Shown here: piece by piece, positions 4,006 through 46,217 of the stretch | How positions within the stretch are numbered: the stretch's first letter is position 1 | How the letters are laid out: each line of letters starts with the position of its first letter | Assembly: GCA_022729235.1 (NCBI GenBank) | Contig: JALDAJ010000001.1 | Span: 32,001 to 96,000 of the forward strand | DNA: 64,000 bases | Direction of reading: 5' to 3' | Origin: Candidatus Nanohalarchaeota archaeon | Lineage (GTDB): Archaea; Nanohalarchaeota; Nanosalinia; Nanosalinales; Nanosalinaceae | Program-made: the position numbers and the translations under genes | The notes under the pieces: model-generated | Database searches by the model: none | The model's input: the letters and a program-made list of their open reading frames with translations, nothing else | What the model was told of the DNA's origin: nothing

Positions 4006-4164
4006 ATTAGACGATTTTAAGAACTATTATAAAGATTTCCAATCGTTTAAACTGCTTAAAACCGTAACAACTTCAAGAATTATTGTTTCTTCTTCCTGCT
4101 TTTAAATATTGCTTTACTCCAGTACACTATTCCTGATTTAAGATTGTCCTCTCCCAGGTACCCC

Positions 4165-4581
4165 ATGAACCTCCACAACCTCAAAAAAGGAGACAGAGTA
4201 CTCTTCAACCAGCGAGAAATACCTCTTGAAGTATCTGACGTCGATGAGAACCGGGTACATGTCAAAGGTCCTAGAGGCGGAGAGTACATCCTGTTCCCTG
4301 CTGAAAACGACCCGGAACTTCTGCTGGTGGCGAACAAAGGCTCCCGGGAATACGCGTCAAAGGTCGAGAACCTTAGAGAAGTAGGCGAGTGGAAGAAAAC
4401 GGGTGAAAACAAATGGAGACACTCGAAGTCGAGTTGCGAGATAAATCTCATTAAGAATGATGCAGGCTTCTGGACGATAGAAACAGCGCTCGAGATAGAC
4501 CTCCCTAAATACGGCTATTCAAGTAAAGAAATAGCCGTAGAAGAGATAGAACAGCTTATAGAGAAAAATCCTGAAGGATGA
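4165..4581 (+). CDS. hypothetical protein (SH3-like N-terminal part)
   Basis: ATG at 4165; LKKGDRVLFN...KGPRGGEY pattern. Confidence 0.75.
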   Translation: MNLHNLKKGDRVLFNQREIPLEVSDVDENRVHVKGPRGGEYILFPAENDPELLLVANKGSREYASKVENLREVGEWKKTGENKWRHSKSSCEINLIKNDAGFWTIETALEIDLPKYGYSSKEIAVEEIEQLIEKNPEG

Positions 4582-5000: not shown

Positions 5001-5972
5001 TTACTCGATATGCTCAGTCAGGTTTTCAGGCACATCTTCGAGTCCTAGCTCCTGCACGAACTCACGGCTCCTCTGCCTTAAAGTAACAGTTGTGACATCC
5101 AAGACATCTGATATCTCTTTCATCGTACGGTCTTCTCCCTCCGCATAAGCTGACAGGTAGAGAGCGCTTGCGGCAAGTCCCTTGGGAGATTTACCGGATA
5201 TAAACTCCTTCTCATGAGCCTGCTCCAGTAACTCCTCTGCCTGTTCACTGGTCTCTTGACTGAGATCTAGCTTTTCCACAAACCAGTCCAGGTACTCTCC
5301 GGGGTGTGGCGGTATTATACGCGCATCTGTATTCCTACCTATGAACCGGTAAGCCTTCCCAAGCTCTCGCTGGGGCGCACCTGTGATCTCAGATATCTCC
5401 TCCAGCGTCCTCGGCTCGTCCTCTTCCCTTGCCACGATATATACCGTTGCGGCAACAACATTCCGCAGTTCTCGCCCTCTCATCAAGTCCCTATCATGCA
5501 GTTCTTCAAGAAGATTTTCCGCCCCTTCCTGGACCTCCTGCGAAAGCTCCAGTTCCGCAACCAGAGTCTGTAGAGCCTGTAACTCATACGTATGCCTGTC
5601 CTTAACCTCCGGAAGCCAGCGCTCTACTCCTTCATACTGTGGACGAGCAAAAACCGTAAGTAACAATCCTGCAACAAGCAGAGGCAGTGAAAGACCGATA
5701 GCAGCGAGCCCTGCGACGGACGCCTCAGCCGGGACAGAAACCTCTCTTATATCTCTCTGCCTGGCTGTCCTAATACTGAAGAAAAGCAGGGAGAAAATAG
5801 CTGAGAAGGCAATGAATTCTGTAGCAAATACCGCACCCGTACTGCTGAAAAATACAGATCCAAAGCTGAAGAACCTGCTGAAAACCATCCCTGCAGCTAG
5901 AGCGATTACACCGTATTGCACGCAGAGACTGCCCATACTCCGCCAAGCCTCAAGCTTGTTGTCATAGCCCAT
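5001..5972 (-). CDS. TFIIB/TFB-family protein with N-terminal transmembrane region
   Basis: two cyclin repeats (RGR..VVAATVYI..R...PRTLEEI; GKSPKGLAASALYL; VTTVTLRQR) after about 3 hydrophobic segments; no Zn ribbon. Confidence 0.9.
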   Translation of the reverse strand: MGYDNKLEAWRSMGSLCVQYGVIALAAGMVFSRFFSFGSVFFSSTGAVFATEFIAFSAIFSLLFFSIRTARQRDIREVSVPAEASVAGLAAIGLSLPLLVAGLLLTVFARPQYEGVERWLPEVKDRHTYELQALQTLVAELELSQEVQEGAENLLEELHDRDLMRGRELRNVVAATVYIVAREEDEPRTLEEISEITGAPQRELGKAYRFIGRNTDARIIPPHPGEYLDWFVEKLDLSQETSEQAEELLEQAHEKEFISGKSPKGLAASALYLSAYAEGEDRTMKEISDVLDVTTVTLRQRSREFVQELGLEDVPENLTEHIE

Positions 5973-6148
5973 AAAGACGCTCTCGGGAAATTAAGCCCCG
6001 TCCAGGCTTTTAACCGAGATTACAGTCAATCGCAACAGTCACAGAGGCTGGAAGAGGTCAAAAACAGGTTTTCAGCTACTAAGTGATATTACTCACCGCA
6101 GAACCATTATCCAGTTTTTTATACTAGTAGGAGCAAATAGATACCATC

Positions 6149-6421
6149 ATGACACTGTACGAGTTCTACGGCGATGGCTGTACTCACTGTAAAACCATGG
6201 CTCCAAAAGTGGAAAAACTCGAGGAAGAAGAAGGCATAGAAGTCGAGAAACTTGAAGTCTGGAACGACGAGGAAAACCAGGAAAAACTCAAGGAACTCGA
6301 CGACGGCAGATGCGGCGGAGTACCGTTCTTCATCAACACGGAAAGCGATGAATGGATTTGCGGAGAAGCAGACTACGAAACACTAAAAGCCTGGGCGAAC
6401 GGCGAAGAAGTCGAGAACTAG
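6149..6421 (+). CDS. thioredoxin/glutaredoxin-like protein
   Basis: EFYGDGCTHC and GVPFF motifs. Confidence 0.9.
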   Translation: MTLYEFYGDGCTHCKTMAPKVEKLEEEEGIEVEKLEVWNDEENQEKLKELDDGRCGGVPFFINTESDEWICGEADYETLKAWANGEEVEN

Positions 6422-6577: not shown

Positions 6578-7939
6578 ATGGAAGAATTTGACCTAATAGT
6601 TATAGGAGCAGGTTCAGGACTGGAAGTCGCAAACGCCTACGCACAGCGCGGTAATGAGGTCGCGGTTGTTGAACCCGGTCCTCTCGGAGGTACATGCCTG
6701 AACAGGGGATGTATACCCTCCAAGATACTTATCCACCGCGCCGACATCATAGAAGAGATTAATGGTTCAGAAGAGTTCCACATCGACGCGGAAGTAAACG
6801 ATATAGAGTTCTCCGAGATAATTGAAGAAGTCAACAAAGAAGTAGCGGAGGACGCTGAAGGTATCGAACGCGGAATCGAGAACTCAGATAACCATGCCTT
6901 ATACCGGACAAAGGCTAAGTTCGTGGACGAGAAAGTCCTGGAAGTCGATGGAGAGGAGATAACCGCGGACAAGATAGTAATCGCCGCAGGTTCAAGACCG
7001 CTCATCCCGCCTATCGACGGGGCTGAAGCTGTTGACTACCTAACCAGCAAGGAGGCGCTGGAACTGGAGGAACAACCCGATGATATGGTGATAGTCGGCG
7101 GAGGATACATCGCTCTGGAACTCGCGCATTTCTACGATGCTGTAGGAACCGAAGTAACGATAATAGAGATGGCTGAACAGCTCCTGTCAAGATCGGATCG
7201 CGACGTCTCGGAAAAGATAACGGAAATCGCCTCGGAAAGATTCGATGTGCACCTGGGGTATGCTGCCTCTGAACTCGGTGAAAGAGACGATGGCCGCATA
7301 GAGGTTACAGCCGAAAATGAGGAAGGTAACGAGAAGTCATTCGAGGCAGACGAGGTATTAATCGCGGCAGGAAGAGTCCCGAATACTGACGAGTTACAGG
7401 TCGAAGAGACCGGTATCGAGACCACGGAACGTGGTTTCGTAAAGACCAACGAGTACCTGGAAACGAATATAGATGGGCTATACGCACTGGGCGATATCGC
7501 GGACAACTGGATGTTCAAGCACTCCGCCAACCTGGAGGCAGAATACGTCTACAAGAACCTCGTGACCGGTAACAACTACAAACTGGAACAAGAAGTCATG
7601 CCGAGCGCCGTTTTCTCCAGTCCGCAAATCGCGGCTGTAGGAAAGACAGAGCAGGAGCTGGAGGAGTCTGATACGGATTACGTCTCCGCAACATACCCTT
7701 ACTCGGATACAGGTATGGGCATGGCGCTAAAAGAAGAAGACGGATTTGTCAAGGTGCTGGCCTCGGAGGACGGCGAAATACTGGGTTGCCACATACTCGG
7801 TCCTGACGCCTCCACGCTCATCCATCAGGTTATCGTGGCGATGACCTCAGGTTCGGGAACTGTCGACGATATCAAGGACACGGTTCACATACATCCTGCA
7901 TTGAACGAAGTAGTAGAGAGAGCGTTCCAGAAGCTGTAA
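6578..7939 (+). CDS. class I pyridine nucleotide-disulfide oxidoreductase (dihydrolipoamide dehydrogenase/mycothione reductase-like)
   Basis: GAGSG, GGTCLNRGCIPSK, GGGYI and HIHPALNE motifs. Confidence 0.92.
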   Translation: MEEFDLIVIGAGSGLEVANAYAQRGNEVAVVEPGPLGGTCLNRGCIPSKILIHRADIIEEINGSEEFHIDAEVNDIEFSEIIEEVNKEVAEDAEGIERGIENSDNHALYRTKAKFVDEKVLEVDGEEITADKIVIAAGSRPLIPPIDGAEAVDYLTSKEALELEEQPDDMVIVGGGYIALELAHFYDAVGTEVTIIEMAEQLLSRSDRDVSEKITEIASERFDVHLGYAASELGERDDGRIEVTAENEEGNEKSFEADEVLIAAGRVPNTDELQVEETGIETTERGFVKTNEYLETNIDGLYALGDIADNWMFKHSANLEAEYVYKNLVTGNNYKLEQEVMPSAVFSSPQIAAVGKTEQELEESDTDYVSATYPYSDTGMGMALKEEDGFVKVLASEDGEILGCHILGPDASTLIHQVIVAMTSGSGTVDDIKDTVHIHPALNEVVERAFQKL

Positions 7940-43372: not shown

Positions 43373-44023
43373 ATGACTGAATTGTCTAAGACAACAGTTT
43401 ATATTCCTGAAAAAATCCATAGTTATCTGAAGTTTGAAACTCAGCAGGATGCTGAGAATCAAGGAGTTTTAGTTTACAGAGAACATCCAGGAGCAGATAA
43501 TGAAGACGATATTTTCATCGAATACAAGCTACCTACAGGCAGAGGTACTCCGGGAAGAGTGGAACCACAGCAGGAGAAGTTAGATGTTTTACATCAATTC
43601 ATGGAAGATAATCCTGAATACAGAGGAATTGTATACCATACTCACTCGGAAGGAACTCTTGAGGAGTTCGGAGAAATTTACGGTCATAACTTTTCGCCAG
43701 GAGATATGCCTCAGATTAGTAGTGAGAAGCCTTCAGGTTATGAAGATTGGGAACTTTTGGTTACTCCGGATTGGATTTTATCTTCGGAGGAATGGCAAGA
43801 ACTAAGTGGTTCCTATAATGGAAGACACAATTTCATCAGTGAGGAAGAACTCGAAAGGGCGCACGAGGAAGGAAGAGGAAAGCCAGAAGTTGTTATATCT
43901 GATTGGAGCATGGATGACGGAACACCATTCATGCCTGAAAATCCTGGAACAGATGAATCAGTCTGGGGAGATGTCAGGTCAAAACTAGGTCAAGCAAGAA
44001 AAAAAGCTACAGAAGGAGTATAG
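43373..44023 (+). CDS. JAB/JAMM (MPN+) metallo-isopeptidase-like protein
   Basis: ENQGVL...YHTHS...FSPGD. Confidence 0.7.
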   Translation: MTELSKTTVYIPEKIHSYLKFETQQDAENQGVLVYREHPGADNEDDIFIEYKLPTGRGTPGRVEPQQEKLDVLHQFMEDNPEYRGIVYHTHSEGTLEEFGEIYGHNFSPGDMPQISSEKPSGYEDWELLVTPDWILSSEEWQELSGSYNGRHNFISEEELERAHEEGRGKPEVVISDWSMDDGTPFMPENPGTDESVWGDVRSKLGQARKKATEGV

Positions 44024-44033
44024 AGGGATTATT

Positions 44034-44618
44034 ATGTCGGGAGATTTTGGAGACTCACTCAAAGAATTCTCTTTTATTGAACATGATATTGAGCCGGGTA
44101 AAACGCTTTCCGGCGGGTTAGGAGCTGAAATAAGGTATGATGAGAGAAGTCCTGATGTAGTCGAAGAACATTTCGATACTGATACAGAACCCGGGGATGA
44201 AATATTTAATCACTTCACAAACGATAGAGGAAATTACCATAGTATTGAGGAACAGGGAATCTCAACTGACAAAGACGGGAACCCGCTCTTTTCGGAATTA
44301 GTTGAAGAAGAGGTTGGCGAGTGCCTTGAGATGGCCTTAGTAGGATTAAACTATGTACAAGATGACTTTGATGAAGTATATCTGGTAAACGGTTCCTTAC
44401 CTGATACTGACCAACTTAATTACAAAGTTCCAGAACACGCATACCTGATTTTAGAGGATGAAAAAGGTTATGAAGTATTCGACCCGGCAAGACTGATTGG
44501 TAATGAGCCAGTTCGGGGCAGAATAGTAGGAATAGGCGACTCCAATACTCTAGAACTTGAAAGCGATGTACAGGAAGATTTTGAATCTGCATTTGGACAA
44601 AAATATTCGCTTCAATAA
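44034..44618 (+). CDS. transglutaminase-like (Cys-His-Asp) protein
   Basis: GECLEMA, HAYL and VFDP motifs. Confidence 0.7.
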   Translation: MSGDFGDSLKEFSFIEHDIEPGKTLSGGLGAEIRYDERSPDVVEEHFDTDTEPGDEIFNHFTNDRGNYHSIEEQGISTDKDGNPLFSELVEEEVGECLEMALVGLNYVQDDFDEVYLVNGSLPDTDQLNYKVPEHAYLILEDEKGYEVFDPARLIGNEPVRGRIVGIGDSNTLELESDVQEDFESAFGQKYSLQ

Positions 44619-44648
44619 ATTAATTGGTTCTATGGGCTTCGGTGTGCG

Positions 44649-44707
44649 GAACGCTTATCACGGTTAATTTACTAAACTAGTCGTGATTTGACAGTTTAAT
44701 AAACGGT
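44649..44707 (+). repeat. ~59-bp imperfect direct repeat, copy 2
   Basis: matches 43221-43279. Confidence 0.85.
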
Positions 44708-44708
44708 T

Positions 44709-45344
44709 CTATGATGATTTTTGTGGCTGTTCAGCGCCTAAAAGTTGATTCCACAGATTAGACAGGCGGGTTGTGATAGTCTTCCAAATATCATGTCTTC
44801 GTTTGTATAATTCTGCCAGTTGTTCTACTACATTGATTTCGAATTTTATCTTGATGGCTGTAAATGAAATAGGAATCAGAACTAAAATTGAGATGACTAT
44901 TGATATAGACAGGTAAACTATGTTTACAGACCTTTGAATTACTGGAACCACAATATCATATTCGCGAATATTTCTGACTGACAATGTTCTTTCAACTTCA
45001 TCTTCTAACTCCTCGATTTCTTGCTCCTGATTTTCTATCAGTTCCGACTGGTTCTCACTTTTTTCTTCATAATAATCCGCTTGTTCTCGTAAGTCACTTC
45101 TGTTATCGCTGTAGTTACTGGCGACTGCTTGGTAATGTTCTTTTTCAGACTGCAGTTGCGATATTGTACTTTCAAGTTCATTTATTTCAGCTTCTAAACT
45201 TGATATGTCCTCCTCGTACACCTCTTCATCTACTGTATCGGCGTTTATTTGTTGAAACATGGAAGGTACTACGGAGAGTATCCCTACAACAAGTATAGCT
45301 ACTGCTATACCTGTACACGCAGTTACTATATCGTCTTCTGTCAC
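44709..45344 (-). CDS. coiled-coil protein anchored by two TM segments
   Basis: N-terminal TM, long heptad region, second TM near the C-terminus. Confidence 0.75.
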   Translation of the reverse strand: MTEDDIVTACTGIAVAILVVGILSVVPSMFQQINADTVDEEVYEEDISSLEAEINELESTISQLQSEKEHYQAVASNYSDNRSDLREQADYYEEKSENQSELIENQEQEIEELEDEVERTLSVRNIREYDIVVPVIQRSVNIVYLSISIVISILVLIPISFTAIKIKFEINVVEQLAELYKRRHDIWKTITTRLSNLWNQLLGAEQPQKSS

Positions 45345-45375
45345 ATAGAATTTCTGGGTCGCAAATATTATCTGT

Positions 45376-45657
45376 TTAATCTAATTCGGATTGGAAATAC
45401 TCTTCGTAACCCAGATTCGCTATTAATCCTTCTAAATTCAGGTCTAAATCTTCAATATTGTTTTCGGGATTAATTTTGTCTTCTTCAATTTCTTCTTCCG
45501 TTAAAAATGCGGTATTGTCTATTTCGGCTATATTGGTTGCTAGTTCTTGTCTATCTACTTCTTTTTCGGGTATTTCTTCAATGATATTCTGATATAGTTC
45601 GGTCTTTCTGGTTGCTATTAGCCCAATCATGTTGAGCGCCTGTTCTTCTTTCTCCAT
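45376..45657 (-). CDS. hypothetical acidic protein
   Basis: 93-aa ORF coupled to the upstream gene. Confidence 0.65.
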   Translation of the reverse strand: MEKEEQALNMIGLIATRKTELYQNIIEEIPEKEVDRQELATNIAEIDNTAFLTEEEIEEDKINPENNIEDLDLNLEGLIANLGYEEYFQSELD

Positions 45658-46217
45658 TATGCCACCTCAAGCGCCGTTTTACTTACTTCGGCAGAACCAG
45701 TCGTTAAGGCTTCTTTAGTACTCCCTTCAAGCATTTCTCCAAATACTTCTTCATCTACTGTATCGTTGGTAGTGTCTGCTAGATATTCAAGTCCGCCAGA
45801 ATCTTCTACGCTATTCCTCAAGTCTTCTGCAATTTCGCCCGCCTCTTTTTCTGTGATTTTACTCGCTTGAAATGCGACACCTTGTTGTTTTGTTTCTTCT
45901 ACTAAATTGCTGAATCTATCAGAGGAATCTGAGTCACTCCATGCGTCATACATTCTTTTTCCGGCTTTTCCAGTAGTGTAAGCAGTGTATGCTGTAGCAA
46001 GATGAGGATTAGTAGAAGCCACTCCGCCTAAAACCATTGCTTTACCGACTGTTTTAGCTGAATCCTTTACATCTTCCTCCGAAATACTATCTTCGGAACC
46101 AGAAAACCCTGCATCTTCCGGATGTAGTGCGCCGTTACAGCTACATTGACACTGACTGGCTGGCATTTTTACAGCATTCTCACAACGAGGACTGTGCGAC
46201 ATAGAACCCCCTCCCAA
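45657..46217 (-). CDS. hypothetical protein with N-terminal Cys/His cluster
   Basis: HSPRCENA...CQCSCNGALH. Confidence 0.7.
   Translation of the reverse strand: MGGGSMSHSPRCENAVKMPASQCQCSCNGALHPEDAGFSGSEDSISEEDVKDSAKTVGKAMVLGGVASTNPHLATAYTAYTTGKAGKRMYDAWSDSDSSDRFSNLVEETKQQGVAFQASKITEKEAGEIAEDLRNSVEDSGGLEYLADTTNDTVDEEVFGEMLEGSTKEALTTGSAEVSKTALEVA

Follow-up and report, generated by a model that had tools for sequence, protein, structure and literature searches.

Within a 64,000-nt stretch of the genome of Candidatus Nanohalarchaeota archaeon (GCA_022729235.1, JALDAJ010000001.1), hereafter the window, in which all positions without a locus prefix are counted, the gene at 5001..5972 on the reverse strand encodes a paralogue of archaeal transcription factor B (TFB) whose core follows three predicted membrane-spanning helices. 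Our results indicated that this protein and its relatives, referred to as the membrane-type TFB, are real, conserved and lineage-restricted, and their architecture is certain. Full-text literature searches, with subscription-only literature outside their scope, returned no description of a TFB with transmembrane helices, and the design is apparently undescribed. With somewhat less than even confidence, we propose that the membrane-type TFB is a cytoplasm-facing, membrane-tethered module that would bind the TATA-binding protein (TBP) and promoter DNA without recruiting RNA polymerase, acting as a sink or competitor.

Two TFIIB cyclin repeats were detected in the 323-aa product (Pfam PF00382, E 2e-38, two stretches). 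The NCBIfam TFB model NF001658 aligned residues 129-312 with its positions 126-309 of 312 at 166.8 bits (cut-off 384), and since the alignment is confined to these residues, the first ~128 residues fill the positions usually taken by the Zn ribbon, B-reader and B-linker, at a similar length. The Zn-ribbon family PF08271 gave no match at E <= 1, there is no CxxC anywhere in the protein, and the B-reader/B-linker (NF001658 positions ~45-122) is unaligned, with the last Y..W of the linker alone kept; this Tyr and Trp correspond to the B-linker end ..Y..LRKW.. of ordinary TFBs. Kyte-Doolittle 19-residue windows of 1.5-2.4 lie at about 12-42, 44-71 and 78-112 (segment maxima 2.05-2.36). Correspondingly, an AlphaFold2 model built on the alignment of the 17-sequence family (mean predicted local distance difference test score, pLDDT, 83.5) has N-terminal helices at 3-36, 46-71 and 80-91 plus 95-108 (34, 26 and 29 residues), a flexible linker at residues 113-124 (pLDDT <50) and a TFB core of ten helices (pLDDT mostly >85). 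Foldseek placed the P. woesei TFB core in TBP/TFB/DNA complexes at the top of its matches (1D3U_B, E 1.2e-10, 38% identity, and 1AIS_B; 38-39%). The first-pass annotation of this locus had read about three hydrophobic segments at residues ~15-110 as replacing the Zn ribbon and B-reader, followed in an unbroken frame by two complete cyclin repeats with the motifs GKSP and VTTVTLRQR. All of this held: hydropathy windows and model helices agree on the segments, PF00382 and the ten confident helices account for both repeats, the motifs stand at residues 260-263 and 293-301, and the frame crosses the membrane/core junction intact. By sequence and model, the membrane-type TFB is thus predicted to be an integral membrane protein with three spanning helices, a flexible linker of 15 residues and a complete TFB core. 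It belongs to the TFIIB superfamily by its core, yet it lacks the Zn ribbon and the B-reader/linker and so should not be classed as a TFB proper. The features are as follows (HTH, helix-turn-helix).

5001..5972, reverse strand: whole gene, membrane-anchored TFB paralogue, ATG start, 323 codons plus stop (Pfam, NCBIfam)
5934..5972, reverse strand: N-tail, residues 1-13, basic motif K..AW(R/K)..G kept by most members (alignments)
5865..5933, reverse strand: hydrophobic helix 1, residues 14-36, C17..Y20-G21 with Y20 invariant
5772..5837, reverse strand: hydrophobic helix 2, residues 46-67 (the AlphaFold helix extends to 71), from hydropathy and model
5721..5771, reverse strand: loop 2, residues 68-84, Arg-rich, with R68 first and invariant E83 near the end
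5646..5720, reverse strand: hydrophobic helix 3, residues 85-109, G93 and G102 invariant, S95-x-P97 kink
5598..5645, reverse strand: juxtamembrane linker, residues 110-125, conserved Y113-E-G-V-E-R-W119-L-P, pLDDT <50
5331..5597, reverse strand: cyclin repeat 1, residues 126-214, five helices, HTH1 with P187-R188-T189 .. Y208-R209 .. R213
5046..5303, reverse strand: cyclin repeat 2, residues 224-309, containing S259-G-K-S-P263 and HTH2
5058..5096, reverse strand: HTH2 recognition helix VTTVTLRQRSREF, residues 293-305, T294, T297, R299 and R301 invariant in the family
5004..5045, reverse strand: C-terminal tail, family-specific motif (V/Y/F)-P315-E-(H/N)-L with P315 invariant
5973..6148, no strand: intergenic region of 176 bp shared with a divergent thioredoxin-like gene, A-T-rich TTAAAA 36-41 nt upstream of the ATG (sequence only)

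Six-frame searches of 70 genomes of the phylum found full-length matches in seven, namely G000, G021, G023 and G024 of family f1 and G014, G019 and G020 of family f5 (completeness 95, 96, 92, 78, 69, 75 and 71%, respectively), and in 7/7 the frame is intact without internal stops. A profile of the N-terminal part matched only these seven carriers at E <= 5e-40, with nothing comparable in the other 63; it was built from those same seven sequences, so that their matches follow by construction. A word-index search of 5.8 billion proteins returned 15 homologues of the same type (41-68% identity, most covering 94-99% of the query), and an exhaustive hidden Markov model (HMM) search of 1.84 billion representative proteins returned nine full-length clusters plus fragments at 297-478 bits, separated by a gap from ordinary TFBs at 224 bits or less. 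The full-length HMM clusters all show three hydrophobic segments and no CxxC, and equivalent segments occur in P0018-P0025, P0034 and six other genomes. In addition, a related-loci search with the A5 alignment gave 12 loci, and the four full-length ones among them come from Nanohaloarchaeota, including Ca. Nanohalalkaliarchaeum halalkaliphilum. With P0001 as query this search found no relative, and a sequence search with residues 1-128 alone returned only the query, the method being insensitive for hydrophobic sequence. An earlier worry was that the fusion might be an assembly chimera of one genome. Its recurrence in 7/70 phylum genomes and about 10 protein clusters, on independent contigs, excludes this. 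The matching sequencing runs are soda-lake metagenomes from one study, none of them RNA; two short contigs of run X2 cover 5413-5601 and 5672-5882 without differences, none comes from run X1, and the junction is not independently bridged.

We then compared proportions of nonsynonymous (pN) and synonymous (pS) differences. For the N-terminal part, pN was 0.34 vs pS 0.69 between G020 and G019 (111 codons) and 0.23 vs 0.67 between G023 and G024 (113 codons), and pN is well below pS in both gene halves; synonymous divergence (dS) is saturated in both gene pairs, and only the inequality pN<pS is used. By this measure, the N-terminal part is under purifying selection. Moreover, there is no in-frame ATG, GTG or TTG between codons 104 and 162, and an intact soluble core therefore cannot arise by internal initiation in the source genome. 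Translation starting after the membrane region, a second result that had been named as refuting the anchored design, is unlikely on both counts. The patchy distribution (7/70 genomes) and fast evolution would suit a paralogue in decay or without function, or an artefact of gene calling or assembly, but the intact frames, the low pN in both halves, the recurrence on independent contigs and the 30 positions that are invariant among the 17 sequences, whose mean column identity is 48%, largely refute this explanation, which we regard as very improbable.

These 30 invariant positions cluster in the two HTH motifs. As reference, we took the 48 core positions at which conservation reaches 90% or more among 38 distinct Zn-ribbon TFBs from the phylum. 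At 26 of them, at least 80% of the 17 membrane-type sequences have the same residue, and the changes elsewhere are mostly conservative; among the retained positions are R167, R182, R188, R209, R213, R299, P187-R-T..E192, G260, P263, T294 and T297. Indeed, T294, T297, R299, R301, Y208, R209 and R213 are invariant in 17/17 membrane-type sequences, and at R299, R209 and R213 the identical residue is present in at least 97% of Zn-ribbon TFBs. As judged from the alignment, both HTH1 and HTH2 are retained in the membrane-type core, along with most of the arginines that ordinary TFBs keep; HTH2 is described as acting at the B-recognition element (BRE) (PMC4581349).

The source genome, one contig of 1,027,595 bp with a completeness of 95%, contains three TFIIB-repeat genes, TFB1, TFB2 and the membrane-type TFB, and one TBP gene (L037 1213-1779 (-)). 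TFB1 and TFB2 score 404.6 bits (profile positions 5-309) and 298.6 bits against NF001658, and 60 and 44.8 bits against the Zn ribbon PF08271. The TFB1 cyclin core (L001 655-1797 (+), L017-L036) is identical or nearly identical across many genera of family f1, and N-terminal to its Zn ribbon TFB1 has a 60-100-residue acidic extension with the conserved motif (N/H)(I/V)PRR(E/Q)(F/I)D.Y.(V/I)P(E/D)EW. The C-terminal (V/Y/F)-P-E-(H/N)-L motif of the membrane type is absent from TFB1, TFB2 and the Zn-ribbon/short-linker paralogues described below.

A cyclin-core tree (63 rows, 204 columns, IQ-TREE quick search) was inferred with the Shimodaira-Hasegawa-like approximate likelihood-ratio test (SH-aLRT) as its only support measure. 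The 17 membrane-type rows all lie on one side of a branch with SH-aLRT 99, and their clade joins four Zn-ribbon/short-linker TFBs of f5 genomes with SH-aLRT 100, so that on this tree the membrane-type family is one clade descended from TFB. The Zn-ribbon/short-linker paralogues (L013 1271-2131 (+), L014 1486-2310 (-), L016 1270-2133 (+) and L039 984-1802 (-); P0028) consist of a CxxC..CxxC ribbon, a low-complexity Gly/Ser-rich linker of ~30 residues, YSGIEKW and the cyclin core. They are without B-reader/B-linker, as their NF001658 matches run from profile position 123-124 onwards, and they were seen only in family f5 genomes, on short branches of 0.03-0.06. A motif Y-x-G-(I/V)-E-(K/R)-W immediately ahead of cyclin repeat 1 is common to them and the membrane type, and G014 has a TFB of each kind.

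Relatives of the N-terminal module also occur as stand-alone three-helix proteins, namely a 112-aa protein in G007 and a 164-196-aa family in G019, G020 and three metagenomic sequences (L072 1477-1812 (+), L075 1055-1546 (-) and L076 1014-1601 (-); P0171-P0175). The module and the stand-alone family align over 85 columns with an hhalign probability of 88% (E 2.9e-6), and they have in common W..G....(E/Q)YG, an Arg that follows helix 2, a Glu preceding helix 3 and, beyond helix 3, (F/W)LPDIE. This suggests that the gene arose when a small membrane module was joined to the core of a TFB paralogue that was already without a B-reader; alternatively, the stand-alone membrane proteins could be truncated derivatives of the membrane-type TFB. 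Pfam returned nothing below E 0.01 for the N-terminal part or the stand-alone relatives, and an ESM Atlas search with residues 1-128 gave no usable match. The best structural hit to the N-terminal model (pLDDT 76.8) among 48,161 chains, EMC6 (Z 6.0, 81 residues, root-mean-square deviation 2.8), falls within the generic helical range and was not accepted as a fold assignment. In the 164-aa stand-alone family, which counts only five proteins in 5.8 billion, the C-tail is conserved as GSFLPD...AWGH..(I/V)K..M and contains several His. Two metagenomic TFB cores with one N-terminal hydrophobic segment each, P0055 and P0153, were rejected as members of the membrane-type family, with the first helices of repeat 1 absent; P0055 starts with a lipoprotein-like signal, and both are unrelated to the family and probably chimeric or truncated gene calls.

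An N-terminally truncated TFB is known to compete with full-length TFB. In ordinary TFBs, the Zn ribbon is described as recruiting RNA polymerase through the dock domain, and the B-linker as entering the polymerase towards the active site and stabilising the template strand (PMC7289017). The membrane-type TFB has neither part, so it should not support initiation, and it presumably lacks polymerase recruitment altogether. In our proposal, the three-helix module would hold the TFB core about 15-20 residues off the membrane surface, where the core would face the cytoplasm and bind the single TBP of the cell and TATA/BRE DNA like an ordinary TFB core. Without Zn ribbon and B-reader it would neither recruit nor position RNA polymerase, and would therefore compete for TBP and promoters at the membrane or act there as a sink for them, which would make it a regulator of a negative or spatial kind. 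Through the conserved polar and glycine residues of the module (Y20, R68, E83, G93 and G102), the protein might receive a signal from the membrane or envelope or become subject to intramembrane cleavage. The orientation, the binding of TBP and DNA and the regulatory effect are what we infer.

Several observations weigh against this proposal. Strict identity is lost at 22/48 reference positions, including P144S, Q284M and E214N, and the specificity or function of the family may have shifted; further family-specific changes are A288S and TTVTIRERS where TFB1 and TFB2 have TEVTIRNRY, and the substitutions taken together (P144S, E214N, Q284M, A288S and HTH2) suggest altered specificity. The membrane-type end branches of 0.08-0.65, compared with 0-0.005 for TFB1 cores, mark fast evolution. 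The gene is absent from 63/70 genomes, including that of same-genus G032 (96% complete), and is thus dispensable. It has no conserved operon partner, as the neighbours vary among the seven loci. Finally, membrane charges favour the opposite orientation. Averaged over the 17 members, the N-tail has 2.5 lysines plus arginines (K+R), loop 1 has 0.24 and loop 2, which nearly always begins with Arg, has 2.9; the 20 residues after helix 3 have 2.5 K+R vs 4.7 D+E. With three spanning helices, the positive-inside rule applied to this distribution favours an inside N-terminus and an outside C-terminus, placing the core outside the cell.

On that topology, the surface-displayed core could bind extracellular DNA through its two HTHs as an uptake receptor of a nucleotide-scavenging symbiont, for which bacterial ComEA is a loose analogue, or could have acquired another extracellular binding role. 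The summed charges (5.4 K+R in N-tail and loop 2 vs 2.7 in loop 1 and the 20 residues after helix 3), the net acidic flank after helix 3, the conserved DNA-contacting HTH residues and the fast evolution of the family are all in line with this. However, positions on the TBP-stirrup side (PRT..E, HTH1) are among the best conserved, and extracellular DNA binding would not need them; the conserved residues appear to make sense only beside TBP and DNA, which argues against an outward core, as does the juxtamembrane Y..W motif shared with the cytoplasmic Zn-ribbon paralogues. In addition, the subgroup P0010-P0013, L012 and L015 has short, neutral or acidic N-tails that fit an outside N-terminus, and to our knowledge no TFIIB fold occurs outside cells. 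A re-entrant hairpin in place of helix 3, which would reconcile the charges, was considered and rejected: the break in the helix (DSSP 92-94) matches the pattern expected of the P97 kink, and in all members the hydrophobic stretch spans only 24-27 residues. An extracellular cyclin core had been named beforehand as grounds for giving up the tethering idea, and this objection still stands: the K+R count speaks for an outside core and the conserved TBP- and DNA-facing residues for a cytoplasmic one. On balance, the sequence features make the core quite probably cytoplasmic, and we consider either form of the outward-facing explanation rather unlikely.

Helix 3, which adjoins the core, raises the question whether the core stays attached. 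Helix-weakening residues mark the substrates of intramembrane proteases, and in this helix G93, S95-x-P97 and G102 vary little or not at all. The model shows a flexible linker at 113-124, and the source genome has genes for two M50 site-2-type and two rhomboid intramembrane proteases. The protein might thus be a latent membrane store from which intramembrane or juxtamembrane proteolysis frees a soluble, N-terminally truncated core acting as a dominant-negative repressor at TBP/promoter complexes, a logic that would resemble that of SREBP or anti-sigma factors. Such proteases are near-universal, however, matching in 14/14 control genomes, and their presence is hence not specific; core release also faces the same topology problem as permanent tethering, and we hold it to be unlikely, though less so than an outward core.

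Alternatively, the protein could be a spatial tether rather than a repressor, pinning particular promoters or parts of the chromosome to the membrane. This might, for instance, position the chromosome or couple the transcription of membrane-protein genes to the insertion of their products, with polymerase recruitment supplied by other factors. The core lies within about 20 residues of the membrane, and the consistent difference of HTH2 from TFB1 and TFB2 hints at a different BRE preference. Against it, the protein has no Zn ribbon to bring RNA polymerase, and no orphan Zn-ribbon/B-reader partner gene scored above the Pfam cut-off in the source genome, where the sub-threshold Zn-ribbon matches are only ribosomal protein S27e and an 87-aa acidic Zn-ribbon protein. 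We give the tether slightly less credence even than the outward-facing core.

Bacterial membrane-anchored anti-sigma factors link the envelope to transcription, and the proposed cytoplasmic sink could be extended along the same line. An integral-membrane TFB paralogue might couple the state of the envelope to global transcription by capturing or releasing the only TBP at the membrane, which is conceivable but doubtful. The state sensed by the three-helix module could, with no greater confidence, be host contact, membrane energisation or lipid state. Seen by analogy, and equally tentatively, archaea would here have their own version of membrane-anchored anti-sigma control, made from the initiation factor itself.

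The source locus is flanked by genes for a YgaP-like protein with a transmembrane domain (PF11127, 4607-4912 (-)), a small thioredoxin-like protein with CTHC that is divergently transcribed (6149-6421 (+)) and a pyridine-nucleotide disulphide oxidoreductase (6578-7939 (+)); this redox-flavoured neighbourhood is not conserved at the other six loci. A 145-aa protein without a Pfam family (4144-4581 (+)) is encoded 0.4-2.3 kb from the membrane-type TFB in G000, G021 and G024 and adjoins other non-TFB1 TFB paralogues in G014 (C22) and G042 (C8), a position that may be a remnant of shared synteny; it occurs in 54/70 phylum genomes and so is not specific to the membrane-type TFB. At 44001-46000, the G+C content falls to 0.387 vs about 0.48-0.50 in the remaining window.

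In the prevailing view, archaeal initiation depends on soluble TBP, TFB and TFE, and the TFB paralogues known so far alter the choice of promoter or, as Sulfolobus TFB3 does, act in trans. With a TFB core that sits in the membrane and has lost the part recruiting polymerase, basal transcription would be regulated or localised in a new way. The membrane type occurs in minimal-genome symbionts with one TBP and few regulators. As a natural N-terminally deleted TFB, it offers a means of asking how TBP availability limits transcription. Should the core face outward instead, it would be the first extracellular use of the TFIIB fold.

Compared with canonical archaeal TFB (NF001658; 1AIS, 1D3U), the membrane type shares the two cyclin/HTH repeats, is 38-39% identical to the solved core and keeps the PRT..E, SGKSP and T.VT.R.R motifs and the Y..W of the B-linker end. 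It differs in that three transmembrane helices replace the Zn ribbon, the B-reader and most of the B-linker, in its score far below the NF001658 cut-off and in evolving far faster than TFB1. The Zn-ribbon/short-linker TFBs are its nearest relatives in the core tree, with the pre-repeat motif Y-x-G-I-E-K-W and the same late start in NF001658; in contrast to it, they keep the CxxC..CxxC ribbon, are soluble and evolve slowly. Sulfolobus TFB3 is soluble as well and has kept the N-terminal part and lost most of the core, which is the opposite truncation, since the membrane type keeps the core and loses the N-terminal part. TFB3 is likewise a non-canonical TFB paralogue, described as unable to replace canonical TFB and as acting by a non-standard route (PMC7289017, PMC6101594). 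The membrane-bound one-component regulators ArnR/ArnR1 of Sulfolobus acidocaldarius (PMC6396743, as described there), like the anti-sigma factors, have a domain binding DNA or an initiation factor fused to membrane helices, but these are specific regulators with unrelated folds, whereas the membrane type would tether a paralogue of a general initiation factor. Closest in spirit is plant pBrp/AtBRP1, a TFIIB-related protein at a membrane surface, which is reported mainly on the cytoplasmic face of the plastid envelope and in the nucleus only when proteolysis is blocked (PMC7865254); it is eukaryotic and of unrelated origin, and the passage describing it gives no sign of integral helices such as those predicted for the membrane-type TFB.

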